In this document: piece by piece, positions 3,981-26,369 of the stretch
Position numbering within the stretch: position 1 is the first letter of the stretch
Layout of the letters: every line of letters starts with the position of its first letter
Virus record (IMG/VR): IMGVR_UViG_3300035183_000733
Location: 26,496 to 90,495 of that record
DNA: 64,000 bases
DNA from: a virus
Strand: one strand, 5' to 3'
Notes under the pieces: model-generated
What the model was told of the DNA's origin: nothing
The model's database searches: none
What the model saw: the letters and a program-made list of their open reading frames with translations, nothing else
Translations under genes and position numbers: made by a program

Positions 3981-4155
3981 GCTCAAAAAGGTTGTGTGAC
4001 GTCGCTGAGGGAACCCAGTGGACACAGAGGATTATCGTTCCATTCCAGATTGACCATCCTCAAGCAACACTCTCCTGAAAACTGGCGTACGCCCGGAGCA
4101 ATCCGGGCCGCGGCCAAGCTGAGTCTCTTAGCCCCCTAAGGCTCAGCGGAACATT

Positions 4156-4285
4156 TGTCGAGTACAACTGGAGGTCAAGCGCTGATCAAAGGTGGTCCTG
4201 ACGGGAAGCAGCAGTCTAATTAACTGCTGGAGCCCGATCAAACTCAGCAAAGGAAGTGCGGGTTCGAATCCCGCCTCGACGGCAG
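4156..4285 (+). ncRNA. tRNA-like 3' element (T-arm GCGGG-TTCGAAT-CCCGC plus 7-bp acceptor) without canonical cloverleaf; possible tmRNA-like or insertion-bearing tRNA
   Basis: perfect T-arm at 4258-4274; 3' acceptor ctcgacg pairs with tgtcgag at 4156-4162 which is 127 nt away; internal 7-bp hairpin 4211-4231; 5' boundary uncertain. Confidence 0.25.
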
Positions 4286-4360
4286 TGCAAGAACTACGGT
4301 GAACATGGGTTCGTCCCTCCGCCGTAGTTTTTAAAAATGAATTAAAAACCGAAACAATTC

Positions 4361-4390
4361 GGGATATATAGAGTATAAAGATAAGATTGT
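4361..4390 (+). promoter_or_regulatory. candidate phage promoter, motif GGATATATAgAgTATAAAgATAAG
   Basis: near-identical 30-nt motif recurs at 16148 and 20038 and partly at 25728, each upstream of a short ORF, a terminator and a tRNA cluster. Confidence 0.45.
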
Positions 4391-4463
4391 TCTACCTTAT
4401 TCCCAACAAATGGCAGATATACAAACAGGGACTTGCCAGGTAAAATAGTCGAACTAAAAAGAC

Positions 4464-4550
4464 ATGAAGAAGTATAACGCATATCAGCAGTATAATCAAA
4501 ATCAGAATCAAAGTTCTGGGCTGAGCGTTATTTCCCCATTTGAAAAGTAG
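4464..4550 (+). CDS. short leader ORF (28 aa, MKKYNAYQQ..), TAG stop
   Basis: start ATGAAGAAG resembles the leader ORFs at 16171, 20063 and 25742; sits between promoter motif and terminator. Confidence 0.25.
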   Translation: MKKYNAYQQYNQNQNQSSGLSVISPFEK

Positions 4551-4574
4551 TAACACACTATACAACGCGTAAAA

Positions 4575-4600
4575 GGCCCAGGACAAAATCCTGGGTCTTT
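4575..4600 (+). terminator. rho-independent terminator
   Basis: GGCCCAGGA-caaaa-TCCTGGGTC followed by TTTTT. Confidence 0.6.
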
Positions 4601-4606
4601 TTACTT

Positions 4607-4695
4607 GGGTGGATTACCGTAGAGGCCGAACGGTCCAGACTGTTAATCTGGTGTGACGACGAGTCCCATCGCAGGTTCGAATCCTGCTCCGCCCG
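4607..4695 (+). tRNA. tRNA with long variable arm (type-II-like), anticodon GTT (Asn-type)
   Basis: acceptor gggtgga/tccgccc; anticodon arm ccaga-ctgttaa-tctgg; 19-nt variable arm with gac/gtc hairpin; T-arm gcagg-ttcgaat-cctgc. Confidence 0.5.
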
Positions 4696-4731
4696 CAAAA
4701 ATAGGTCCGACACGGGTAGATAGTAAATTAT

Positions 4732-4805
4732 GGACATGTAGCTCAGCAGGTCAGAGCAGCTCACTGTTAATGAGAAGGCCGGGGGTTCGAATCCCTCCTT
4801 GTCCG
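4732..4805 (+). tRNA. tRNA-Asn (GTT)
   Basis: 74-nt cloverleaf; D-stem gctc/gagc; anticodon loop ctgttaa; T-arm ggggg-ttcgaat-ccctc. Confidence 0.8.
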
Positions 4806-4810
4806 CAAAT

Positions 4811-4885
4811 TTCTTGGGTGAGTCGGCTGTTTATTACGCGCGCAGCTGACGGTTGGAAGAAGAGGTTCGAGTCCTCCCTAAGGAG
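4811..4885 (+). ncRNA. tRNA-like element, atypical core (acceptor + T-arm with one long internal hairpin)
   Basis: acceptor ttcttgg/ctaagga and T-loop ttcgagt are present but no D or anticodon arm can be drawn; an 8-bp hairpin spans 4822-4850. Confidence 0.3.
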
Positions 4886-4895
4886 CAACAAATAT

Positions 4896-4985
4896 GGGTG
4901 TACGGTCGCGACGGTGGAGCGACCCCAGTCTGTAAAACTGGGACATTTAAAGAAACGCCGGGGGTTCGAAATCCCTCTACACCCA
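4896..4985 (+). tRNA. tRNA-Tyr (GTA)-like copy with 8-nt T-loop and A-rich variable region
   Basis: acceptor gggtgta/tacaccc perfect; anticodon arm ccagt-ctgtaaa-actgg identical to the neighbouring tRNA-Tyr; T-loop ttcgaaat. Confidence 0.5.
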
Positions 4986-4990
4986 CACAT

Positions 4991-5072
4991 TGAGGAGCGC
5001 TAACGTTGGAGAGTTAGACCAGTCTGTAAAACTGGTGCTTCGGCTGAGTGGGTTCGAATCCCATCTCCTCAA
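4991..5072 (+). tRNA. tRNA-Tyr (GTA)
   Basis: acceptor tgaggag/ctcctca; anticodon loop ctgtaaa; variable arm closed by a gc-ttcg-gc tetraloop. Confidence 0.8.
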
Positions 5073-5079
5073 CTTAAAT

Positions 5080-5163
5080 TGTCCGATCGCCTAATGGCAT
5101 GGCGCCGGGTTTTGGCCCCGGTGGGAAGTAATTCCTGTGTAGGTTCGACCCCTGCTCGGACAA
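5080..5163 (+). tRNA. tRNA with long variable arm, anticodon TTG (Gln-type)
   Basis: acceptor tgtccga/tcggaca; anticodon arm ccggg-ttttggc-cccgg is the same loop as tRNA-Gln(TTG) at 5282; 17-nt variable arm ggaa-gtaa-ttcc. Confidence 0.5.
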
Positions 5164-5281
5164 CAAGACATCGACAGAGGTACTCGTCCGCAGACGTGTG
5201 GAAAAGTGTGTGCTTGCGACCATTAAAGTCTCTGTGTATCCCAATAGGTAGGAAGTAATTACTCTGAATGATTGGGAATAC

Positions 5282-5354
5282 TGTCCTGTAGTGTAACTGG
5301 CAACACGTCGGGTTTTGGCCCCGAAGATTCCAGGTTCGAACCCTGGTGGGACAA
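5282..5354 (+). tRNA. tRNA-Gln (TTG)
   Basis: 73-nt cloverleaf; anticodon arm tcggg-ttttggc-cccga; T-arm ccagg-ttcgaac-cctgg. Confidence 0.8.
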
Positions 5355-5392
5355 CAAAACGAAATTTATTTCGTATCTTTGAAGTATTATAT

Positions 5393-5465
5393 TGTCCTGT
5401 AGTTCAACTGGCAGAGCGCCTGATTCTGGATCAGGATGTTGGAGGTTCGAACCCTCCCGGGACAA
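5393..5465 (+). tRNA. tRNA-Gln (CTG)
   Basis: 73-nt cloverleaf; anticodon arm cctga-ttctgga-tcagg; T-arm ggagg-ttcgaac-cctcc. Confidence 0.8.
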
Positions 5466-5529
5466 CATGGGAATTAAGAACAACAATTAGTAGATAGATG
5501 CTGTAATCCTAAATACACACAAAAGACTG

Positions 5530-7092
5530 GTGGCGGATATATTTGGAAATATGAGCATAATAACTAAAAAAGATTCGGGGAGGGTACGCGTACGTTTCGC
5601 GCCCTCCCCTACGGGACCCCTGCACTTAGGAGGGATCAGGACCGCATTATACAACTACCTGTTTGCTAAGAAGCACGGCGGCGATTTCATACTTCGCATC
5701 GAAGATACCGATGCGATGAGGTTCGTGCCAGGCGCCGAAGAGTATATCATCGAAGCGCTGAAGTGGTGCGGTATATCGCCCAACGAAGGCGTTGGATTTG
5801 GCGATGGTCCGCATGCACCATACAGGCAGTCGGAGAGAAAATCCATTTACAAGGAATACGCTATTAAGCTCGTGGAGCTCGGCCATGCATACTATGCGTT
5901 TGATACTGGGGTATCGCTCGAAGAGAGACGCGCTGTCAACAAGAATTTTATGTATAACGGGGTGACTCGCGAGTCGCTGAGAAATAGTTTGACGTTGTCT
6001 TCTGATGAGGTGAAATCGCTATTAGACTCGGAGACGCCGTACGTTATTCGGTTTAAGATACCGCGCAACACCGAGGTCGTGGTTAACGACATAGTTCGTG
6101 GTGCAATAAGGGTCAACACGAACACGCTCGACGACAAGGTATTGTTCAAGAGTGACGGCATGCCTACTTACCACCTGGCGAACATTGTGGATGACCATCT
6201 CATGGGGATCACCCATGTAATCCGAGGTGAGGAGTGGTTGCCGTCTGCCCCGCTGCACGTTCTTTTGTACGAGGCTCTCGAGTGGGACGCCCCAGAGTTC
6301 TGCCACCTTGCGTTGATACTTGGGCCTAACGGCAAGATGAGCAAGCGCGACATGGATTCTCTCGGGTTCCCAGTGTACCCGCTTGATTGGACAGATCCCA
6401 ACACGGGGGAAAAGGCATCCGGATACCGTGAGATGGGATTCCTACCGGAAGCGTTCATCAACATGCTTGCGTTCATCGGATGGAACCCCGGCAACGGCAA
6501 GGAGATAATGGGTCTCGACGAGATGGCAGAGGTGTTCGACCTCAGGAAGGTTCAGAGAGCTGGTGCCAAGTTCGACCCAAAGAAGGCGGAGTGGTACAGC
6601 AAGGAGTACATGAGGGTCGCTGACGACGCCGTGCTCGTCGAGAAGTGGATACCGGATCTGTGGGATAACGTTGATAAAAGCATTCCGCTTTCTCGCGTTT
6701 CTTCCGAGTACCGCACGAAGGTCGTCCACTTACTGAAGGAGAAGGTGGCATATCTCGGAAAGTTTTGGGAGAACGGCAGTTACTTCTTTATTGATCCAAC
6801 CGATATGTCGGTGCTCGATGAGTTGGCCGCGTCTAATGATAAGGTAACTCCGTTTATATTAAGCATGATGTCTAAGCTGATCGCCGATGATGTATTCGAT
6901 ATGACTACCACTAAGGCTTGCTTTGATTCTGCCATAGCAGAATCCGGCATTGAGCCGCGCGAGGCCGGTAAGGCATTGCGTGCTGCAGTTTGCGGCAACA
7001 AAGTGGGGCCGCCGATGTTCGACATATTGGTGGTGCTCGGAAAGAACACCACGTTGTCTCGTCTTAAGAACTGCGCAACTGCACGAAGCTAA
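5530..7092 (+). CDS. gltX: glutamyl-tRNA synthetase (class I, bacterial GltX type)
   Basis: PSPTGPLHLGG (HIGH), KMSKRD (KMSKS), LAFIGWNPG, YRQSER motifs; 520 aa. Confidence 0.9.
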   Translation: MADIFGNMSIITKKDSGRVRVRFAPSPTGPLHLGGIRTALYNYLFAKKHGGDFILRIEDTDAMRFVPGAEEYIIEALKWCGISPNEGVGFGDGPHAPYRQSERKSIYKEYAIKLVELGHAYYAFDTGVSLEERRAVNKNFMYNGVTRESLRNSLTLSSDEVKSLLDSETPYVIRFKIPRNTEVVVNDIVRGAIRVNTNTLDDKVLFKSDGMPTYHLANIVDDHLMGITHVIRGEEWLPSAPLHVLLYEALEWDAPEFCHLALILGPNGKMSKRDMDSLGFPVYPLDWTDPNTGEKASGYREMGFLPEAFINMLAFIGWNPGNGKEIMGLDEMAEVFDLRKVQRAGAKFDPKKAEWYSKEYMRVADDAVLVEKWIPDLWDNVDKSIPLSRVSSEYRTKVVHLLKEKVAYLGKFWENGSYFFIDPTDMSVLDELAASNDKVTPFILSMMSKLIADDVFDMTTTKACFDSAIAESGIEPREAGKALRAAVCGNKVGPPMFDILVVLGKNTTLSRLKNCATARS

Positions 7093-7110: not shown

Positions 7111-7776
7111 TCAAGCCGCGCTATTCTTGATTCTTCGAGTCCACTTCTTTCTGACCTTCTTTATGTTCAGTAAAAGATTTCTCTCTTTTTTAATCATGTT
7201 GTCGACCTTGCTTATTGTGGTACCCAGTTCCTTCGCGATGTCTTTCATTATCACGTCACCCCGATGCTTAAGTATTATGTTTAACGCCGGGTATTTGTTC
7301 GGACATTTACGTAGCACATGCTTGGCCTTGTCGAGCTTGTCGAGCTGTACATCGTACTTTTTTCGGACCATCTCCTTTACCTGAAAGTGTATGTTTGAGT
7401 CTATGCCGGCATACCTCCTATACACGGACATGGTCTCGTTGCCCGAGAGGTGTAACTTGACATCCTCACATCTGTCGTACTTTGAATCTTGTTTGATCCA
7501 TTGCAAGCACTCCATGTATGCTATATGATGCAGCCAAGTGGTGAATTTAGACTTGGTCTTGTCAAATTTTTTATGATACTGTAACAACCGCAAGAATGTC
7601 TGCGACACTATATCGTCAGCAACTATAGGCCCCACTTTATTTGCTGCAAAATGCCGAATTTTCGACCCGAACACCTCGAACGCCATACCGACGAGCTCGG
7701 GGTCCTCGGCAATGCCATCTTGTATTATCCTTACCTTGTCTTTGTCCATAAGCATTATATCGCGACCATGACGCAT
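7111..7776 (-). CDS. RNA polymerase sigma factor, sigma-70 / ECF-like
   Basis: region 2 DDIVSQTFLRLLQY..FTTWLHHIAYMECLQWIKQ and region 4 HTH DIAKELGTTISKVDNMIKKER. Confidence 0.7.
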   Translation of the reverse strand: MRHGRDIMLMDKDKVRIIQDGIAEDPELVGMAFEVFGSKIRHFAANKVGPIVADDIVSQTFLRLLQYHKKFDKTKSKFTTWLHHIAYMECLQWIKQDSKYDRCEDVKLHLSGNETMSVYRRYAGIDSNIHFQVKEMVRKKYDVQLDKLDKAKHVLRKCPNKYPALNIILKHRGDVIMKDIAKELGTTISKVDNMIKKERNLLLNIKKVRKKWTRRIKNSAA

Positions 7777-11381: not shown

Positions 11382-12491
11382 ATGAATAGGATTAAGAGAT
11401 ACAAGGACTTCGGTCAAGTGGATGAGAAGATGGGCGTGCCATCGGCCATAATGCCGATGGCCGACAAAGTTACTGAGGTGCTGCTCGACAAGTTACTCGC
11501 TCAGGTCAGGGGGATAGAGGACCTCGGCAATACGTTCGAGACAGAGGTCGAAATCGCAGGCAACGAGATAGGACACGCAACGTTCCCCGTGGACAAGATG
11601 AAGTTTTACGCGAGACTGGTACCACATCCAGGTGTCCTGAATTTTGACAGCACAGGTGCGTTCGATAATGAATCATTTAAGGTCAAAGATGGCAAGGCGA
11701 GCTTTGATATTTTGGTTAATATCGTAGTCAACATGCTTACGTTTTTCTTGCAACTCGACAACCCTAAGCTCTACAAGATAATGAGGGACAAGATGCACTC
11801 CACCATATCGCACGAGCTAACGCATGCGTATGAGTCGTACAAAAGGCAAACGTCGAAGAAGAAGGCGCCGAAGTTATCTGACACCAAGCAGTTCATTTAC
11901 GACATGGTTTCCAACCTTATCATGAACAAAGGACCTTTGCCGGAGGACATAAGCAACTTACTGTTCTTGATATACTGCTCCGCCTCATACGAGGTTAACG
12001 CGAGGATACCGCAGATGTGGTCGGAGATCAGAAACATAAAGGACCCACACGATAGGCTCGACGCAATAAAAGAATCATCTATATGGACCATGGCCAACAA
12101 GCTGGCGACGTTCGATGCCGATGAAACGTACGAGCGCATGCTCGGAAATGTTGTGGGAGATGATGGGGAAGCTGTATCAAGGGAAGAATCTATTAAGAGA
12201 CTCAATAATTTATTCGCGTCTCTCGAGGAACAATTCATCGTAGGAAACGAGCAGCACATAAAAGACGTGATGTCGAACATATTGTCTGACATCGGCATAT
12301 TCCCCGGCAACAGAGAAAACGAGGAGCTGATAAAAACTCTCAAAGCGCACGACAACGAATACAAGAAGGTCTCTAAACTCAGCGCCTACAGGTTCCTGAA
12401 ATTCTGGGAGAAGCGATTCAATAAGATAGGGCGCACGTTCAAGCACAAGCTCAGCAAACTAACCACCTATGAGGAATCGCCGGAAGAATAA
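11382..12491 (+). CDS. HExxH (HELTH) motif protein, putative metallopeptidase
   Basis: 369-aa ORF with HELTHAYE motif. Confidence 0.55.
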   Translation: MNRIKRYKDFGQVDEKMGVPSAIMPMADKVTEVLLDKLLAQVRGIEDLGNTFETEVEIAGNEIGHATFPVDKMKFYARLVPHPGVLNFDSTGAFDNESFKVKDGKASFDILVNIVVNMLTFFLQLDNPKLYKIMRDKMHSTISHELTHAYESYKRQTSKKKAPKLSDTKQFIYDMVSNLIMNKGPLPEDISNLLFLIYCSASYEVNARIPQMWSEIRNIKDPHDRLDAIKESSIWTMANKLATFDADETYERMLGNVVGDDGEAVSREESIKRLNNLFASLEEQFIVGNEQHIKDVMSNILSDIGIFPGNRENEELIKTLKAHDNEYKKVSKLSAYRFLKFWEKRFNKIGRTFKHKLSKLTTYEESPEE

Positions 12492-12706
12492 AGAGGAGAA
12501 CGCGCTCGACCTGCACGGGATAAGGCATAGGGACGTAGATCTCATGGGTGGAGAACCATGTGTTTCTGTCTAAACTTCCGGTCACCATAATCACCGGTCA
12601 CTCAGAGGAGATGAAGCGAATAGTTCGCGGAGTTCTCGATCGTAACAACTTCAAGTACATCGACGGACTGTCACACAATCACGGCTGCATAGTGGTATTA
12701 GAATAA
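12469..12706 (+). pseudogene. Smr-domain (MutS2 C-terminal-like) small protein interrupted by a +1 frameshift
   Basis: frame 1 reads MRNRRKNKEENALDLHGIRHRDVDLMGGEPCVSV*; the +1 frame continues VFLSKLPVTIITGHSEEMKRIVRGVLDRNNFKYIDGLSHNHGCIVVLE*; together they match Smr LDLHG and ...GhG...LL-V-IE motifs. Confidence 0.4.
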
Positions 12707-15604: not shown

Positions 15605-15689
15605 GCCCAGGTGGTGGAATTGGTAGACACGCTACTTTGAGGGGGTAGTGTCGCAAGATGCACGAGTTCGAGTCTCGTCCTGGGTACCA
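15605..15689 (+). tRNA. tRNA-Leu (GAG), type II, CCA encoded
   Basis: GCCCAGG-TG-GTGGAATTGGTAGACAC..; anticodon arm ctact-ttgaggg-ggtag; T-arm acgag-ttcgagt-ctcgt; discriminator A then CCA. Confidence 0.8.
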
Positions 15690-15691
15690 TC

Positions 15692-15762
15692 GACCCTGTA
15701 GCTCAAGGGTAGAGCGCTGGTCTCTAAAACCGGGGTTGCGGGTTCGAATCCCGTCAGGGTCT
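15692..15762 (+). tRNA. suppressor tRNA, anticodon CTA (reads UAG amber)
   Basis: clean 71-nt cloverleaf: GACCCTG-TA-GCTC-AAGGGTA-GAGC-G-CTGGT-CTCTAAA-ACCGG-GGTT-GCGGG-TTCGAAT-CCCGT-CAGGGTC-T. Confidence 0.85.
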
Positions 15763-15788
15763 CATAAATAAAGTGAAGGAATAAGAAT

Positions 15789-16112: not shown

Positions 16113-16147
16113 TCCCTATATTTATAGAACAATTCCGAAACAAAAAA

Positions 16148-16170
16148 GGATATATAGAATATAAGTTATA
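16148..16170 (+). promoter_or_regulatory. candidate promoter, GGATATATAGAATATAAGTTATA
   Basis: same motif as at 4361 and 20038; sits immediately before a leader ORF. Confidence 0.45.
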
Positions 16171-16248
16171 ATGAAGAAGATGATCAACATAGTGCTCGTG
16201 TTCCCAGTGTTCGTGTCGTTTAGCGGCTCCGGGCGTGTTCTTCGATGA
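16171..16248 (+). CDS. short leader ORF (25 aa, MKKMINIVLVF..)
   Basis: paralogous to the leader ORF at 25742 (MKQMINIV..); followed by a terminator then tRNAs. Confidence 0.3.
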   Translation: MKKMINIVLVFPVFVSFSGSGRVLR

Positions 16249-16282
16249 CTTCTAAGTAAAACATTCGAAAACATTATGAAAC

Positions 16283-16312
16283 GCCCGGACCGAAAGTTCG
16301 GGCGTTTTTTAT
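16283..16312 (+). terminator. rho-independent terminator / processing hairpin before the tRNA cluster
   Basis: AAACGCCCGGAC-cgaaa-GTTCGGGCGTTTTTTATTTTTT. Confidence 0.65.
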
Positions 16313-16317
16313 TTTTT

Positions 16318-16392
16318 GGGGCTTTAGCACAGATGGTCAGTTTGCGCTCGCCTGAAGAGCGAGATATTCGGGTTCGAGTCCCGAAGGTCCCA
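16318..16392 (+). tRNA. tRNA-Phe (GAA)
   Basis: anticodon arm ctcgc-ctgaaga-gcgag; T-arm tcggg-ttcgagt-cccga; acceptor ggggctt/aggtccc. Confidence 0.8.
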
Positions 16393-16505
16393 CGAGTGGT
16401 TTAAGCTGTTTTGTTTGCCTCGCAAATCAAAAATCGGCTATCCCGACCAAGTAGTTTATCGAGCCATGAAATGGTCTACTTAAAAAAAACATTGGAATGG
16501 CGCCA

Positions 16506-16579
16506 CGGGGTGTGGGAAAGTTGGTAATCCGCCTGGTTTGGGACCAGGAGTAGCGCAGGTTCGAGCCCTGTCACCCCGA
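16506..16579 (+). tRNA. tRNA-Pro (TGG)
   Basis: anticodon arm cctgg-tttggga-ccagg; T-arm gcagg-ttcgagc-cctgt; acceptor cggggtg/caccccg. Confidence 0.8.
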
Positions 16580-16592
16580 CAATAAGATTTAT

Positions 16593-16679
16593 GGTCCGAT
16601 AGCTCAGTTGGTTCAGAGCGCCTGTCTTACAAGCAGGAGGCGAAAGGTTCCGCAGGTTCGAATCCTGCTCGGACTACCA
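16593..16679 (+). tRNA. tRNA-Val (TAC) with enlarged 14-nt variable region, CCA encoded
   Basis: acceptor ggtccga/tcggact; anticodon arm cctgt-cttacaa-gcagg; T-arm gcagg-ttcgaat-cctgc; ACCA at 3' end. Confidence 0.6.
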
Positions 16680-16886
16680 AATTGTCCTTTGGATTCTTAC
16701 GAAGAACGTCGGCGCATTTTCTAAGGATGCTGTCCATCGCGGCGACTTATGCGGCTTGCAGGAGAACTTTACCGACACGGAGCACTTGGTAAAAAAACGT
16801 CCGTTTTGATAATCAAAATTTTCGAAGTGAACATTTTTTCTTAATCTTTGAACTAAATTGATCGTAGATGAAAATCCAGATCGGGA

Positions 16887-16963
16887 GTCCTCGTAGCTCA
16901 GTTGGTTAGAGTACCACCTTGACATGGTGGGGGTCACTGGTTCGAATCCAGTCGGGGGCACCA
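16887..16963 (+). tRNA. tRNA-Val (GAC), CCA encoded
   Basis: anticodon arm ccacc-ttgacat-ggtgg; T-arm actgg-ttcgaat-ccagt; ends GGGGGCACCA. Confidence 0.8.
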
Positions 16964-19809: not shown

Positions 19810-20037
19810 AGGGTTACAAGATGGACGAAAAGCTGGACCTTGCACAAATATCTGACGACCTGAAGTCCAACTTCAGGTCGTGGGAGCAGGATCACGACAA
19901 CCTGAAAGGTATCTTGCCACCGTGATGTTAGGCGACGTGAACGTCAACGATTGGCTCGTGGAAAATAAGCTGGCGGAAAAAAAACGTATTGATTCGCGGC
20001 ACTTTGATAAAAAGTTTGTACATTTGTGAAACAATTC

Positions 20038-20062
20038 GGATATATAAGATATAAACGATAAC
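20038..20062 (+). promoter_or_regulatory. candidate promoter, CGGATATATAAGATATAAACGATAAC
   Basis: near-identical to the 4361 motif including the preceding aacaattcgg. Confidence 0.45.
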
Positions 20063-20131
20063 ATGAAAAACTTGATACACATACACCATATATGGCAGCT
20101 CTCACAGGGCCCGGCGGTGTATTCTGTATAA
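20063..20131 (+). CDS. short leader ORF (22 aa, MKNLIHIHH..)
   Basis: same promoter / ORF / terminator / tRNA arrangement as at 4464, 16171 and 25742. Confidence 0.25.
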   Translation: MKNLIHIHHIWQLSQGPAVYSV

Positions 20132-20160
20132 AGATCCATGGTTTGATTGATTATACGAAA

Positions 20161-20192
20161 ATCCCCGAGGCCAGAAGTCTCGGGGATTTTTC
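20161..20192 (+). terminator. rho-independent terminator / processing hairpin
   Basis: ATCCCCGAGG-ccagaagt-CTCGGGGATTTTTC. Confidence 0.65.
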
Positions 20193-20196
20193 ATTT

Positions 20197-20267
20197 ACGG
20201 GCGTAGTTCAATGGTAGAATAGCGGTCTCCAAAACCGTTGATGGGGGTTCGAATCCCTCCACCCGTG
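20197..20267 (+). tRNA. tRNA-Trp (CCA)
   Basis: anticodon arm gcggt-ctccaaa-accgt; T-arm ggggg-ttcgaat-ccctc; 4-nt variable loop. Confidence 0.8.
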
Positions 20268-20313
20268 GGAATATTTAAGCTGATACCTCCACGTGGTATA
20301 TTCTGGTAACCCT

Positions 20314-20700
20314 TTATGGGGCTAAATTCAGCTTAGTGATTAGGATATTTTTGATAATATCAAAATACTTAGCACAGTTACGTTCTTTGAAGTATTTTAA
20401 TGAGGAAGTGTCTATTATGACTAATTCTATTCCGCGCTCTAAACAGGCCTGGAATTTATGATGGTCATTGTTACGTATCTGTTCCAATTTAGCTGAACCA
20501 TGGATTAGTTCATAATGGTATATGCCGTTAAGTTCGAACGCGAGTTTCATCGATGGAATATAGATGTCGAGCTCGGCATTGTTGCCAAGTTCGTTCGCGC
20601 GATTGCGGGAGTGCTCTACTACAAAGTGGAAGTCGATGGCGGAGCGTACGAATTCCCGGTAGACATGAACGACAAGGAAGATGTCGGCACTGCTACGTTC
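20314..20700 (-). CDS. DUF559 / Vsr-like endonuclease-fold protein (homing-endonuclease-like); start uncertain
   Basis: LDIYIPSMKLAFELNGIYHYE...KFQACLERGIELVII matches the D-x-Y-x-P..KLAIE-DG..H signature; the listed N-terminus runs into tRNA sequence and is not coding. Confidence 0.4.
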   Translation of the reverse strand, partial: ERSSADIFLVVHVYREFVRSAIDFHFVVEHSRNRANELGNNAELDIYIPSMKLAFELNGIYHYELIHGSAKLEQIRNNDHHKFQACLERGIELVIIDTSSLKYFKERNCAKYFDIIKNILITKLNLAP

Positions 20701-20820
20701 GACGCAGAGATCAAGGCGATAACGTTGATGCGTTACATACGCAAGGCCGACGTAAACACGACTTGCCCCCGGTGTTCCCACCGTGCTGCGGGCAGTCCAA
20801 AGCACTAACGGTGGGACATG

Positions 20821-20905
20821 GGGATTGTAGTCGGTAAGGGATGCCGGCCGGTTTGTGGAGCCGGAATGACAAAGTCTAATGCGGGTTCGAATCCCGTCTT
20901 TCCCC
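20821..20905 (+). ncRNA. tRNA-like element, atypical (good T-arm, weak acceptor, 5-bp stem with 11-nt loop)
   Basis: T-arm gcggg-ttcgaat-cccgt; acceptor gggattg/ctttccc pairs 5 of 7; ccggc/gccgg stem with oversized loop. Confidence 0.3.
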
Positions 20906-20918
20906 CAGGTTTTTTTAT

Positions 20919-20993
20919 GGTAGACGTAGCTCAATTGGTTAGAGCGCCAGATTGTGGTTCTGGAGGTTGTGAGTTCGATCCTCATCGTTTACC
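20919..20993 (+). tRNA. tRNA-His (GTG) with G-1
   Basis: extra 5' G pairs with discriminator C; anticodon arm ccaga-ttgtggt-tctgg; T-arm gtgag-ttcgatc-ctcat. Confidence 0.8.
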
Positions 20994-21065
20994 CAACGTT
21001 CCTCGGGCTATCGCAGCTACCGCGCTGTGTGTGGTCGCACGTGAGATAGGTCAAGGCTCACAAAT

Positions 21066-21134
21066 AGGCGGATACCGTTGGTTGGTAAGTTGCGATTGCA
21101 TCAAACGTGGGTTCGAGCCCCACTCCGCCTACCA
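21066..21134 (+). ncRNA. truncated tRNA-like element (66 nt + CCA): acceptor and T-arm present, no D or anticodon arms
   Basis: acceptor aggcgga/tccgcct perfect; T-arm gtggg-ttcgagc-cccac; ends ACCA. Confidence 0.35.
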
Positions 21135-21520
21135 TTTTTCCGTTTTATAAATTTGCATCATGCAAGAACGGATTGCCGAGATACGAGAACTGCTCTGGAT
21201 ATAGGTGCAGACTCGGTCGGCGCCTCGTCCGCGGCCGGCAGTTGCCATATACCGGTGACCGGGAATATTCGGACAGAATTGGTACCGTACCAGGAGTTTC
21301 TATTCAGGAGCTGCGCGGGTGGACGCCGAGCGTGCAAGCGCCGAACTGTCGTGGCCGATGGAAACATTGAATATCTCGGGACATATTTTTCAAGGCGTGG
21401 ATAACCAACTGGCTCCGTGACTTCGACAATTTCCTCCGTAGGAAGAGAATGTGCGAAATAACGTCTATCTTCGAGAAACGATTGTGGACGCGAACAGCGT
21501 GGAGAACGCGCAAGATATAA

Positions 21521-21590
21521 GGGCCCGTAGCTCAGTTGGTTAGGTTCAACGAGGACTGGAACGCGTTTAAGCCTCGAGTCATCCGGCCCC
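21521..21590 (+). ncRNA. degenerate tRNA-like element (canonical 5' half GGGCCCGTAGCTCAGTTGGTTAG, non-canonical 3' half)
   Basis: 5' acceptor gggcccg pairs with ccggccc at 21583-21589 in 6 of 7 positions; no standard T-loop. Confidence 0.3.
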
Positions 21591-21635
21591 AACCGTGGTG
21601 AGGCGCACGATGGATAGGTCAAGGCCATCAAATTT

Positions 21636-21726
21636 CGGCAGGTACCGTTGGTGTCTTATACACACTATACACGTAGCTGGTATGTTGAGATCACATCAAA
21701 CGTGGGTTCGAGTCCCACCCTGCCGA
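21636..21726 (+). ncRNA. tRNA-like element paralogous to 21066..21134 with a ~25-nt internal insertion
   Basis: acceptor cggcagg/cctgccg perfect; shares TACCGTTGGT...ATCAAACGTGGGTTCGAG(T/C)CCCA with 21066..21134. Confidence 0.35.
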
Positions 21727-22177: not shown

Positions 22178-22252
22178 GGTCCCTTAGCTCAGGTGGTTTA
22201 GAGCAAATCACTCATAATGATAAGGTCGGGGGTTCAAGTCCCTCAGGGACCA
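22178..22252 (+). tRNA. tRNA-Met (CAT) (elongator Met or Ile-lysidine type)
   Basis: anticodon loop ctcataa; T-arm ggggg-ttcaagt-ccctc; acceptor ggtccct/agggacc. Confidence 0.75.
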
Positions 22253-22271
22253 CAATTAGAAAAGCAAAAGC

Positions 22272-25682: not shown

Positions 25683-25727
25683 TAAAGAAAAAACAAAGTA
25701 ATTGCAGCCGAAACAAAACGCGCCGCA

Positions 25728-25741
25728 GATATATAATGTAC
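25728..25741 (+). promoter_or_regulatory. candidate promoter, GATATATAATGTAC
   Basis: truncated version of the GATATATA motif ahead of a leader ORF. Confidence 0.35.
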
Positions 25742-25822
25742 GATGAAGCAAATGATTAACATAGTTCGAATTAGCAGAAGGCGCTCAGACGTCCTGTCCG
25801 GATTATGTCCAATCGTAAGCTG
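25742..25822 (+). CDS. short leader ORF (26 aa, MKQMINIVRIS..)
   Basis: nucleotide-level similarity to the 16171 leader (ATGAAGCAAATGATTAACATAGT vs ATGAAGAAGATGATCAACATAGT). Confidence 0.3.
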
Positions 25823-25844
25823 ATAACATCGCTTTTCTTTTGGG

Positions 25845-25880
25845 ACAAGAAACCCGGACCTAATCGTCCGGGTTTTTTAT
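25845..25880 (+). terminator. rho-independent terminator / processing hairpin
   Basis: AAACCCGGAC-ctaatc-GTCCGGGTTTTTTATTTT. Confidence 0.65.
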
Positions 25881-25887
25881 TTTACAC

Positions 25888-25961
25888 TGGTGTGTGACCA
25901 AGCTGGTTAAGGCACCTCCCTGATACGGAGGAAATCGTGGGTTCGACTCCCACCGCACCAA
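25888..25961 (+). tRNA. tRNA-Ile (GAT)
   Basis: anticodon arm cctcc-ctgatac-ggagg; T-arm gtggg-ttcgact-cccac. Confidence 0.75.
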
Positions 25962-25966
25962 CAAAT

Positions 25967-26019
25967 AGTCGCTTAGCTCAGTTGGTTGGTCCCCAGTTCG
26001 AGTCTGGAAGCGACTACCA
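25967..26019 (+). ncRNA. tRNA minihelix-like element (acceptor + D-region + T-arm + CCA, no anticodon arm)
   Basis: AGTCGCT-TA-GCTCAGTTGGTTGGT-CCCAG-TTCGAGT-CTGGA-AGCGACT-A-CCA; perfect 7-bp acceptor. Confidence 0.35.
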
Positions 26020-26085
26020 AGCCAGTCAATATGCGGGATGGCTTGCATTGTTACCGGACATTAAACCACCCGGGCGTTAGAGAAT

Positions 26086-26159
26086 GCACGCGTAGATCAA
26101 CTGGATAGATCACCTGACTACGGATCAGGAGGCTGGGGGTTCGAATCCTTTCGCGTGTA
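26086..26159 (+). tRNA. tRNA-Arg (ACG)
   Basis: D-stem gatc/gatc; anticodon arm cctga-ctacgga-tcagg; acceptor gcacgcg/cgcgtgt. Confidence 0.75.
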
Positions 26160-26221
26160 CAAAATGCCTCAGTAGTCCCGTCGGCTTCGGAACCGATAGG
26201 GCAGAATATGAATTAAGATAC

Positions 26222-26294
26222 GGTCCCGTAGCTCAGCGGATAGAGCATTTGCCTTCTAAGCAAAGGGTCACTGGTTCGAATCCAGTCGGGATCA
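26222..26294 (+). tRNA. tRNA-Arg (TCT)
   Basis: anticodon arm tttgc-cttctaa-gcaaa; T-arm actgg-ttcgaat-ccagt. Confidence 0.8.
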
Positions 26295-26369
26295 CAAAAA
26301 GTAAAGTTATGAAACTGAACATCAAAAAAAGTAAAACAGATCCCTAAGGAAGTCAATTCCAAGTTCGGA

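Follow-up and report, generated by a model that had tools for sequence, protein, structure and literature searches.

Four tRNA clusters in a huge phage are very probably gated by ribosome-mediated (leader-peptide) transcription attenuators of the trp/his/ilv type, a conclusion that we reached on entirely computational evidence. The window, by which we mean the whole stretch of DNA analysed (64 kb of a 373,759-bp contig) and within which tRNA clusters and cassettes were counted, contains four cassettes, at 4351, 16137, 20028 and 25710, each with its parts in the order promoter-like motif, ORF of 22-28 codons, GC hairpin with U-run, and first tRNA. We think it likely that these cassettes make up a phage tRNA-supply homeostat, in which the leader codons would be the counterpart of the anticodons that follow and each tRNA sub-cluster would be transcribed only when decoding of its codons slows. 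Ribosome-mediated attenuation of tRNA genes would be a first, and it would be present in at least two unrelated lineages, namely the uncultured ~370-kb ARPP-1 clade and two cultured Cellulophaga phages, phi4:1 and phi17:2.

The preliminary description of this DNA had reported a recurrent motif, a short ORF and a hairpin in front of four tRNA clusters; these elements were recovered, while the rules given for ORF distance and for the first residues of the leader peptide failed in cassette 1. A 17-mer, GGATATATARARTATAA, occurs at 4362, 16148 and 20038 with 0-1 mismatch, compared to 0.02 occurrences expected by chance, and a more degenerate fourth copy, GATATATAATGTA, lies at 25728; comparison of the four cassettes yields a common extended form, GAAACA-N16/17-TATAA, at the four cassette positions given above. 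A short ORF follows each motif, but the proposed spacing of at most 25 nt fails in cassette 1, where it is 86 nt, and the proposed start MK(K/N/Q)(M/L/Y)I applies to cassettes 2-4 only, cassette 1 opening with MKKYN. The ORFs at 16171 and 25743 are homologous as suggested, with 20 of their first 24 nt identical. A hairpin with U-run precedes the cluster in all four cassettes (-19 to -23 kcal/mol, with A-runs and U-runs on the flanks), and the first tRNA begins 2-13 nt past the stem. A simple terminator scanner recognised cassette 2 alone, because the U-run lies partly inside the stem in cassettes 1, 3 and 4, and RNAfold was used in its place. Coordinates of all parts are collected in Table 1.

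Table 1. Features of the four cassettes, their tRNA clusters and the adjoining synthetase gene, in window coordinates.
Feature	Coordinates	Strand	Details
Cassette 1 promoter-like motif	4351..4380	+	GAAACAA-N5-GGATATATAGAGTATAAAG; conserved in L013, L015, L027, L104, L105
Cassette 1 5' extension	4401..4441	+	sequence repeated from the 5' beginning of the large RNA upstream, plus second promoter-like GCAGATATACAAAC
Leader ORF 1	4464..4550	+	MKKYNAYQQYNQNQNQSSGLSVISPFEK; 28 codons; regulatory codons 4473-4511 (Tyr/Asn/Gln), 12/13 cognate
Cassette 1 antiterminator strand (region 2)	4514..4522	+	UUCUGGGCU; pairs with terminator 5' arm GGCCCAGGA; 1/1000 shuffles
Cassette 1 predicted intrinsic terminator	4569..4604	+	stem GGCCCAGGA/UCCUGGGUC plus U-run; tRNA 2 nt on
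tRNA cluster 1	4607..5466	+	Asn, Asn, Tyr, Tyr, Gln(UUG) x2, Gln(CUG)
GluRS gene	5530-7092		next after tRNA cluster 1
Cassette 2 promoter-like motif	16137..16165	+	
Leader ORF 2	16171..16248	+	MKKMINIVLVFPVFVSFSGSGRVLR; 25 codons; regulatory codons 16192-16221 (Val/Phe/Pro), 8/10 cognate
Cassette 2 antiterminator strand	16226..16240	+	GCUCCGGGCGUGUUC; pairs with terminator 5' arm GAAACGCCCGGAC; 2/1000 shuffles
Cassette 2 predicted intrinsic terminator plus U-run	16278..16308	+	tRNA 9 nt on
tRNA cluster 2	16318..16963	+	Phe, Pro, Val(UAC), Val(GAC)
Cassette 3 promoter-like region	20018..20055	+	TACATTTG (20018-20025, Bacteroidota-type -7 box), then GAAACAA...GATATATAAGATATAAA
Leader ORF 3	20063..20131	+	MKNLIHIHHIWQLSQGPAVYSV; 22 codons; regulatory codons 20075-20095
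Cassette 3 antiterminator strand	20109..20124	+	GCCCGGCGGUGUAUUC; 4/1000 shuffles
Cassette 3 predicted intrinsic terminator	20157..20191	+	tRNA 4 nt on
tRNA cluster 3	20196..20994	+	Trp, His, His
Cassette 4 promoter-like motif	25710..25737	+	GAAACAA-N11-GATATATAAT
Leader ORF 4	25743..25823	+	MKQMINIVRISRRRSDVLSGLCPIVS; 26 codons; regulatory codons 25755-25784
Cassette 4 antiterminator strand	25796..25806	+	GUCCGGAUUAU; 23/1000 shuffles; 5/500 in second test
Cassette 4 predicted intrinsic terminator	25847..25878	+	tRNA 9 nt on
tRNA cluster 4	25888..26295	+	Ile(GAU), Arg(ACG), Arg(UCU)

The first genes past each cassette are tRNA genes, and an aminoacyl-tRNA synthetase (aaRS) gene, for GluRS, follows cluster 1 only, with no terminator and no RATATATA motif detected between that cluster and the GluRS gene. 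Cluster 3 may reach through tRNA-like genes to a CAU-anticodon tRNA at 22178-22253, which is possibly a tRNA-Ile2 and as such a candidate reader of the AUA codons in leader 3. The tRNAs at 15605 and 15692 lack a dedicated cassette, as does the one at 22178.

Upstream of the leaders, the RATATATA core recurs at 19 sites in the window, nearly all of them intergenic and aimed at the next ORF 20-35 nt off, which marks the core as a promoter-like element of general use in the phage. The earlier association of the motif with tRNA clusters thus does not extend to the core and applies to the extended form, in which GAAACAA precedes and TATAA follows the core and which within the window is restricted to the four cassettes. 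The 5' extension of cassette 1 is shared by the window and the loci L013 and L015 only, and is absent from L027, L104 and L105. T4 late promoters carry TATAAATA at -10, which is recognised by gp55/gp33-modified RNA polymerase. The likeness to these promoters put forward in the preliminary description was not upheld: RATATATA is the shared core, none of the cassette sequences TATAAAGA, TATAAGTT, TATAAACG and TATAATGT matches the T4 consensus exactly, and the phage encodes its own sigma-70-type (Sigma70_r2) protein. Bacteroidota housekeeping promoters have the form -33 TTTG / -7 TAnnTTTG, a few nucleotides upstream of the start site. Judged by this consensus, a TAnnTTTG-type box lies upstream of window cassette 3 (TACATTTG) and is absent from window cassettes 1, 2 and 4; the cassettes of L016 have such a box (TATCTTTG) in the same place as window cassette 3, and cassettes A and B of phi4:1 carry TATGTTTG. 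The gap between terminator and tRNA is too short for a further promoter, and the tRNA clusters themselves contain no RATATATA motif. No Shine-Dalgarno sequence was found at the leader ORFs, and leaders of this kind are compatible with a Bacteroidota host or with leaderless mRNA.

Each leader contains a codon run that corresponds to the tRNAs behind it: YNAYQQYNQNQNQ stands ahead of Asn/Tyr/Gln tRNAs, VLVFPVFVSF ahead of Phe/Pro/Val tRNAs, HIHHIW ahead of Trp/His tRNAs and IVRISRRR ahead of Ile/Arg tRNAs. The regulatory codons of leader 3 comprise three His and one Trp codon interleaved with three AUA Ile codons, and those of leader 4 comprise Ile AUU together with Arg CGA, AGA, AGG and CGC. 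Counted against their own clusters, leaders 1-4 have 12, 9, 4 and 7 cognate codons (binomial P of 2.6e-5, 4.8e-3, 3.7e-3 and 2.3e-3), with off-diagonal counts of at most 4, and the true leader-to-cluster assignment scores 32, compared to 23 for the best among the other 23 permutations. Within ten consecutive codons the maxima are 10, 8, 4 and 6 cognate codons (empirical P of 5.6e-5, 2.8e-4, 4.5e-3 and 5.5e-3; Fisher combined 1.7e-9). The enrichment is confined to the ATG frame, the other two frames holding 0-4 cognate codons and being interrupted by stop codons in all but one case. The correspondence extends to isoacceptors, as the leaders carry codons for both Gln anticodons (CAA, CAG) and for both Arg anticodons (CGA/CGC, AGA/AGG). 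The match of cassette 3 amounts to 4 cognate codons only, its three AUA codons being without a proven cognate tRNA in the cluster, and the sole codon matching Val(GAC) of cluster 2 is a GUU outside the run.

Just past the matched codons, the leader RNA has a second pairing option. In all four cassettes, leader codons ~16-24 and the terminator 5' arm can form a duplex, with a stabilisation of -13.9 to -18.2 kcal/mol compared to -4 to -8 in dinucleotide shuffles, and between 1 and 23 of 1000 shuffles attained the observed values (Table 1). The position of the switch was scanned by setting a ribosome footprint codon by codon on the leader and then folding the RNA. The antiterminator is kept as long as a regulatory codon occupies the A site and is gone 0-3 codons past the last one, the loss falling exactly at the last Trp codon in cassette 3 and at the last Arg codon in cassette 4. 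In the untranslated, full-length minimum-energy folds of all four cassettes, region 2 is paired with the regulatory codons and the terminator is formed; in cassette 4, codons 6-9 sequester the antiterminator strand. With the ribosome halted at the end of the leader, on its stop codon, region 2 is left uncovered in cassettes 1 and 4, so that unstalled termination there depends on 1:2 re-pairing in the wake of the ribosome, which is a kinetic argument; in cassette 1, the thermodynamic simulation re-forms the 2:3 pairing with the ribosome at the stop codon.

From this arrangement we infer promoter activity, a start site, leader translation, termination efficiency and its dependence on stalling, as well as a physiological role, along the following lines. 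Transcription would start at the promoter-like motif, and a ribosome would begin the leader, whose codon run would be read by the tRNAs encoded downstream. With aminoacyl-tRNAs plentiful, the ribosome would clear the run and either cover region 2 or leave it to re-pair with region 1, whereupon the terminator hairpin would form and RNA polymerase would stop 2-13 nt before the first tRNA. If any cognate tRNA were scarce, the ribosome would stall on the run and leave region 2 free to pair with the terminator 5' arm, forming the antiterminator and allowing polymerase to enter the tRNA cluster, with read-through from cluster 1 probably extending into the GluRS gene. The net effect would be a negative feedback fitting phage tRNA output to decoding demand, with one sensor per tRNA group.

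Attenuation had been one of two readings offered in the preliminary description, and it is strongly supported by the codon match, the competing antiterminator, covariation in relatives and recurrence in an unrelated phage. The other, a processing or stability hairpin, cannot account for the match between leader codons and tRNAs. In its fuller form, the hairpin would help to process or stabilise the 5' end of the tRNA precursor, or would simply terminate a very short transcript of its own, with incidental ORFs and with tRNAs expressed constitutively via leaky read-through. It is true that 2-13 nt separate the hairpin from the 5' end of the mature tRNA, the site of RNase P cutting, and phage tRNA regions such as that of T5 hold small ORFs and small stable RNAs without any such role. 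However, the frame specificity of the codon-tRNA match in 4/4 window and 3/3 phi4:1 cassettes, the competing pairing just past the matched codons and the covariation of regions 2, 3 and 4 would all go unexplained, and we regard this explanation as improbable.

An RNA-only sensor resembling a T-box, in which the codon run would present specifier triplets to uncharged tRNA with no translation involved, would likewise let the cognate tRNA set the choice between terminator and antiterminator, and the elements do adjoin tRNA-related genes. Yet an Rfam scan (gathering threshold; E <= 1, positions 3700-26400) returned tRNAs and neither a T-box (RF00230) nor any other passing leader family, and neither a conserved Stem I nor a T-box sequence is present in the alignment. 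Every run falls in an open frame that begins with ATG and has its stop at a conserved distance, the other frames being closed, and the runs span 4-13 codons for 2-10 different amino acids, as opposed to one specifier; we consider such a sensor still less probable than a processing hairpin. Amino-acid operon leaders are also absent from the Rfam results at gathering threshold, and the cassettes have no sequence similarity to known attenuators; a Thr_leader match over the cassette-2 terminator was sub-threshold (27.6 bits vs threshold 55, E = 0.18).

The codon match was first noticed on inspecting the window sequences, and the loci L016, L027, L104, L105 and L106 together with phi4:1 served as prediction tests. 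An N/Q/Y run of 11-12 codons, in varying order (for example MTKMNNNQQNYYQNQ, MKAVMNNNQQYQNQYQ and MRAVQNNQQYQNQNQ), is retained by six cassette-1 homologues whose ARPP-1 identity is 60-100%. Regions 2, 3 and 4 covary, with CUGGGC:GCCCAG in the window, CCGGGC:GCCCGG in L104 and UCCGGAC:GUUCGGA in L105; the antiterminators of L104 and L105 do no better than 10-30% of shuffles under one ribosome-mask setting. The L016 cluster has three Pro and one Tyr tRNAs and its leader three Pro and one Tyr codons; the window cluster has a single Pro tRNA and none for Tyr, and the window leader one Pro codon and no Tyr codon. L106 adds a new class, with the leader MTTINNIKTIGKGIRKNEPKFWRC ahead of Ile, Trp, Lys and Lys tRNAs and an antiterminator attained by 2/500 shuffles; its Ile/Lys codon enrichment is weak against an AT-rich background.

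The same homologues bear on the proposal that the short ORFs encode functional micropeptides, for instance the hydrophobic peptide of cassette 2, with the terminator just ending their mRNA. The ORFs are kept as open frames in relatives and leader 2 is hydrophobic, but the peptide is conserved in composition only, the N/Q/Y order being shuffled between homologues, and the C-termini diverge through frameshifts and indels (...GRVLR in the window vs ...GRVMYFDDF in L016) while the nucleotides of region 2 stay. To this proposal we assign a very small probability, below that of the T-box-like sensor.

GenBank phages included no close relatives, the sole match being a tRNA of Cellulophaga phages. In IMG/VR, a scan for the promoter motif gave 9 chance matches, all without tRNAs, helicase relatives (40-51% identity) had no tRNAs nearby, and the degenerate leader patterns NQQYQNQ, IHIHHIW and VFPVFV.F gave many matches, none of them adjoining a tRNA. 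Window-specific ARPP-1 peptides had no match in JGI metagenome contigs. Loci found with an ARPP-1 profile in IMG/VR (76) and in metagenomes (80) had 0-3 tRNAs each and no cassette, their identity being at most ~56% except for two short fragments at 68% (L101, L109). Lower-identity homologues of a 301-aa protein (P0126, P0128) were discarded after they turned out to belong to unrelated lambda-like phages.

The cultured and unrelated Cellulophaga phage phi4:1 contains three cassettes that partition its 22-23 tRNAs. In one leader, the run QRLHLQELEQP is cognate in 11/11 codons and represents all 7 tRNAs; the other two runs are TKTGITVIDKTKGARA and NYCTYNNSNWSFSY. The diagonal of the phi4:1 codon matrix reads 11, 15 and 11, and its antiterminators were attained by 35, 20 and 3 of 500 shuffles. 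An identical pipeline applied to the tRNA regions of T5, crAss001 and GAP32 found no cassettes. A chance origin of the codon/tRNA correspondence and of the alternative pairings can practically be dismissed: the pattern was noticed after inspection and cassettes 2-4 singly reach P ~ 0.002-0.04 in whole-leader counts, but the combined P value and the correct assignment, which beats all 23 permutations, argue against it, as do the predictions that held in L016, L027, L104, L105, L106 and three phi4:1 cassettes and the negative control phages.

How phage tRNA genes are regulated and what they are for is a long-standing question, and the reasons proposed include codon compensation and escape from tRNA-targeting defences (PMC10264068, PMC12409363). 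If the attenuation model is true, these phages gauge whether their tRNA supply suffices and adjust it for each group separately, and classical attenuation extends from metabolic genes to the decoding machinery; the homeostat could be induced in response to depletion of host tRNAs or to defence systems that cleave tRNAs. The model also provides a sequence-only rule that predicts which tRNAs are co-transcribed and which odd tRNAs function, for instance the phi4:1 'pseudo' tRNA whose anticodon is that of Cys and, possibly, a tRNA of the window phage that reads AUA. As phi4:1 and its host, Cellulophaga baltica, are in culture, the attenuation idea is directly testable, and the cassettes offer compact, modular, codon-specific stall sensors for synthetic biology.

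Among known systems, the tRNA regions of T4 and T5 share arrays interspersed with short ORFs, promoters and terminators (as annotated in T5), but the small ORFs of T5 have no hairpin and U-run abutting a tRNA and no cognate-codon enrichment. In T-box riboswitches, too, the status of a specific tRNA decides between terminator and antiterminator; unlike the cassettes, they bind uncharged tRNA directly, need no translation and carry conserved Stem I and T-box motifs. Leader-peptide attenuators also control aaRS genes, as in pheST of E. coli. The hisS paralogues of bacilli provide another example (PMC2965389). In these systems, as proposed for the cassettes, a stall at cognate codons raises a component of the aminoacyl-tRNA supply chain, and cassette 1 may itself drive GluRS; the product induced in the cassettes would differ in being the tRNA itself. 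Our literature search found no report of ribosome-mediated attenuation controlling tRNA genes. The closest parallels are the trpL, hisL, pheL, thrL, ilvL and leuL attenuators, whose leader-peptide logic is matched here (PMC1183508, PMC3082878): a short leader ORF with a regulatory codon run, predicted mutually exclusive 1:2, 2:3 and 3:4 pairings of which 3:4 is a putative intrinsic terminator and 1:2, in cassettes 1 and 4, would depend on kinetics, and, as in the ilv and thr leaders, sensing of several amino acids. Unlike amino-acid operon attenuators, the phage-borne cassettes would gate tRNA genes instead of enzymes, their codons match the anticodons encoded downstream, separate isoacceptors included, and several paralogous sensors, dedicated to different tRNA groups, coexist in one genome.

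The order claimed in the preliminary description was borne out at all four cassettes: the promoter-like motif leads into a short ORF, then a strong hairpin with A- and U-runs on its flanks and, 2-13 nt further on, the first tRNA. The 17-mer reported there occurs three times in the window against 0.02 expected by chance, with a degenerate fourth copy at 25728, and a longer form, GAAACA-N16/17-TATAA, is common to all four sites. The ORF is not close to the motif in cassette 1, where an inserted segment places the start 86 nt past it. Placement before tRNA clusters holds for the four cassettes, but the tRNAs at 15605, 15692 and 22178 lack a dedicated cassette, and the motif core, RATATATA, is generic, with 19 copies in the window, nearly always intergenic and facing the next ORF. 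This element, often GATATATAAGAAAA, lies 20-35 nt 5' of many ORFs on both strands and is probably the promoter element through which the phage runs its own transcription programme. Shine-Dalgarno sequences are absent from the leaders, and the ATG lies only 5-8 nt past TATAAx in cassettes 2-4, pointing to mRNAs that are leaderless or nearly so.

Every leader ORF abounds in residues for which the next tRNA cluster supplies the tRNAs. With cognate codons counted under standard wobble rules, the leader-by-cluster matrix had diagonal values of 12, 9, 4 and 7 and off-diagonal values of at most 4; the true pairing scored 32, and none of the 23 alternative permutations exceeded 23. The richest ten-codon stretches of leaders 1-4 had 10, 8, 4 and 6 cognate codons, with empirical P values of 5.6e-5, 2.8e-4, 4.5e-3 and 5.5e-3 against all equal-length stop-free stretches in the six frames of the window (Fisher's combination, 1.7e-9). 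Only the ATG frame showed enrichment; in the two alternative frames cognate codons number 0-4, and stops close every one of these frames except one. Isoacceptors are covered separately: for Gln, CAA and CAG match the two anticodons, and for Arg, CGA/CGC go with one tRNA and AGA/AGG with the other. Cassette 3 has four cognate codons only, plus three AUA (Ile) codons of unproven relevance, which alternate with His and Trp codons. Within the operon, the sole candidate for reading AUA is a CAU-anticodon tRNA, which may be a lysidine-type tRNA-Ile2 instead of a tRNA-Met.

Coordinates of features in the window (unless a contig is named), with leader peptides (upper case, highlighted residues) and the tRNAs that follow
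Feature	Coordinates	Leader peptide	tRNAs
Leader ORF 1	4464-4550	mkkYNaYQQYNQNQNQ...	Asn, Asn, Tyr, Tyr, Gln, Gln, Gln
Leader ORF 2	16171-16248	...iVlVFPVFVsF...	Phe, Pro, Val, Val
Leader ORF 3	20063-20131	...iHiHHiW...	Trp, His, His
Leader ORF 4	25743-25823	...mInivRIsRRR...	Ile, Arg(ACG), Arg(UCU)
phi4:1 cassette A		mkiQRLHLQELEQPiisggtgv	Pro, Glu, Gln, His, Leu(UAG), Leu(UAA), Arg
phi4:1 cassette B		..qlTKTGITVIDKTKGARAylgdtvig (bracketed run highlighted)	Ala, Lys, Ile, Gly, Met, Asp, Thr, Val, Arg, Met
phi4:1 cassette C		mktNYcTYNNSNWSFSY...	Tyr, Ser, Asn, Trp, Phe, 'pseudo' (anticodon loop GCA, Cys)
AUA-containing stretch of leader 3	20075-20092
CAU-anticodon tRNA	22178-22253
CUA-anticodon tRNA	15692-15763; L016 2179; L027 2666
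tRNAs with long variable region	4607-4696, 5080-5164, 16593-16679, 20821-20906
tRNA-like genes with inserts or missing parts	21047-21131, 21520-21726; L027 6950-7250; L104 7620-7950; L106 2290-2610
phi4:1 'tRNA-OTHER/pseudo'	L440 (phi4:1 locus) 12450-12523 = record 90853-90926
GluRS gene	5530-7092
GatB/YqeY-domain protein gene	L013 11554-12426
Sigma70_r2 protein gene	7111-7776(-)
RATATATA, example sites	18874, 23661, 23726, 37156(-), 47772(-), 63451(-)
Non-coding region 5' of cassette 1	~3990-4335; L013 6570-7315; L015 615-1290
Repeat within cassette 1	4401-4441

Full-length folds of all four cassettes formed the predicted terminator, with the antiterminator strand (region 2, leader codons ~16-24) paired with the regulatory codons (region 1). 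When the terminator 3' arm was withheld to mimic a nascent transcript, region 2 of cassettes 1 and 2 paired with the terminator 5' arm (region 3; UUCUGGGCU with GGCCCAGGA and CCGGGCGU with ACGCCCGG), and in cassettes 3 and 4 it did so when a ribosome footprint masked the regulatory codons. Antiterminator stabilisation was -13.9 to -18.2 kcal/mol; when the intervening sequence was dinucleotide-shuffled 1000 times, only 1, 2, 4 and 23 shuffles equalled it for cassettes 1-4, respectively. In folding simulations with a sliding footprint, the antiterminator was intact with the A site on the regulatory codons and gone 0-3 codons past the end of their run; in cassettes 3 and 4 the loss came exactly after the final Trp and the final Arg codon, respectively. 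The unstalled outcome in cassettes 1 and 4 would depend on re-pairing of regions 1 and 2, not on occlusion by a terminating ribosome. Since only a few nucleotides separate the U-run from the tRNAs and the window's clusters contain no promoter-like motif, tRNA transcripts must pass through the terminator.

The cassettes probably act by ribosome-mediated attenuation, sensing how available the aminoacyl-tRNAs are whose tRNAs the gated cluster encodes. Fast decoding of the leader would lead to termination just 5' of the tRNAs, and a stall on any codon of the run would free region 2 to form the antiterminator, so that the cluster is transcribed; in effect, tRNA supply would be under negative feedback, each tRNA group having its own sensor. 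Read-through of cassette 1 probably also reaches the GluRS gene, as no terminator or promoter motif lies between this gene and cluster 1. Candidate triggers are the change to phage codon usage, decay of host tRNAs and tRNA-cleaving defences of the kind that phage tRNAs have been proposed to counteract (PMC10264068, PMC12409363).

Relatives in Logan and JGI contigs, with flanking genes 58-83% identical, carry the same cassettes in synteny, and nucleotide identity is about 90% in cassettes 1 and 3 versus 72-76% in adjoining genes. Six homologues of cassette 1 retain an N/Q/Y run of 11-12 codons, in frame but in varying order (YNAYQQYNQNQNQ; NNNQQNYYQNQ; NNNQQYQNQYQ; QNNQQYQNQNQ), and the C-terminal peptide is unconserved. 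Because composition is kept while order and C-terminal peptide vary, these leaders argue for selection on codon composition, not on peptide or RNA motif. Regions 2 and 3 co-vary (CUGGGC:GCCCAG in the window, CCGGGC:GCCCGG in L104, UCCGGAC:GUUCGGA in L105), with the terminator 3' arm (region 4) altered to match in every case. In some homologues the antiterminator is non-significant against shuffles. In L016, the Phe/Pro/Val cluster has three Pro and one Tyr tRNA, compared with one and zero in the window, and the leader reads VPVFPVFVPF...Y where the window has VLVFPVFVSF. A more distant, AT-rich relative (L106) has leader MTTINNIKTIGKGIRKNEPKFWRC followed by Ile, Trp, Lys and Lys tRNAs; its antiterminator, GUUUUGG with CCAAAAC, was equalled in 2/500 shuffles, and its codon-composition signal is weak against the AT-rich background. 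ARPP-1 phages at <=56% identity had no cassette and only 1-3 tRNAs. Distant ARPP-1 phages (L028-L103, IMG/VR) share a conserved pair, a variable tRNA then tRNA-Met(CAU), ~3 kb 5' of ARPP-1; anticodons of the first tRNA are very diverse between phages, some odd (UCA, UUA, ACA, AUC, UAU, others).

Cellulophaga phage phi4:1 (NC_021788), found solely through a tRNA BLAST match, is an independent lineage with the same design: three cassettes of this architecture split its 22-23-tRNA array. Cassettes A and B have mutually identical predicted Bacteroidota-type promoters, and the ATG of A, 4 nt past the -7 box, likewise suggests an mRNA with little or no leader. Leader A has eleven consecutive cognate codons representing all seven tRNAs, a run found nowhere else among 13,592 stop-free stretches of the locus; in leader B, 23/27 residues fall within the set of following tRNAs. 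The codon-level matrix diagonal was 11, 15 and 11, and antiterminators A, B and C were equalled in 35, 20 and 3 of 500 shuffles. The annotated 'pseudo' tRNA may be a functional tRNA-Cys, because its anticodon loop reads GCA, matching two TGT codons of leader C. The same detection pipeline found no cassette in the tRNA regions of T5 (23 tRNAs), crAss001 (23) or GAP32 (14).

The window, with 20 tRNA genes, is part of a huge phage; relatives of its ARPP-1 family protein occur on viral contigs up to about 365 kb, and no close relative was found among GenBank phages. It also codes for a sigma-70 region-2 protein, an RRM protein, an RlaP-like nucleotidyltransferase and a SET-domain protein. GluRS is most similar (about 56%) to that of Bacteroidia and Flavobacteriales, which, with the promoter boxes, probably indicates a Bacteroidota host. 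The GluRS gene lies directly 3' of the tRNA-Gln genes and, in relatives, is followed by a GatB/YqeY-domain gene that the window lacks; this hints that the phage encodes an indirect Gln-tRNA(Gln) pathway and transcribes it together with the tRNAs.

Several tRNAs are unusual. Asn, Gln, Val and His each have a normal-length tRNA and an 85-90-nt one whose variable region is long and class-II-like, as is uncommon for tRNAs of these identities; relatives (L013, L015, L016, L027, L104, L105) conserve the pairs. Other tRNA-like genes have internal inserts or missing parts (Rfam tRNA scores 27.6 and 33.1 bits) and a repeated GATAGGTCAAGGC module on their 5' side, and may be intron-bearing, split or degenerate tRNAs; one such stretch begins like a tRNA 5' half, then diverges. 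A CUA-anticodon tRNA (amber-suppressor type; 'Pyl' in ARAGORN) adjoins tRNA-Leu(GAG), so TAG may be read through or recoded in this clade. Leader 1 ends in TAG with TAA immediately after. Immediately 5' of cassette 1 lies a conserved non-coding region of large size (about 700 nt in relatives), which in the window has lost its 5' part and in L027 is missing. At its 3' end are a T-arm/acceptor segment resembling that of a tRNA and a terminator hairpin. Rfam gave no match to it at E <= 1, and a ~40-nt repeat of its 5' end lies within cassette 1.

The cassettes share the structural features of leader-peptide attenuators, and the geometry of antiterminator and regulatory codons is that of trp-type attenuation (PMC1183508), but the target class differs, being tRNA genes here. 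They are not of the T-box kind and match no Rfam leader family. Their nearest functional precedent is leader-peptide control of aminoacyl-tRNA synthetase genes, as in pheST. Such control is also described for hisS paralogues (PMC2965389). A full-text literature search, with subscription journals outside its coverage, found no description of attenuators 5' of tRNA genes in phages or cells; the cultured phi4:1 system makes the attenuation idea directly testable.
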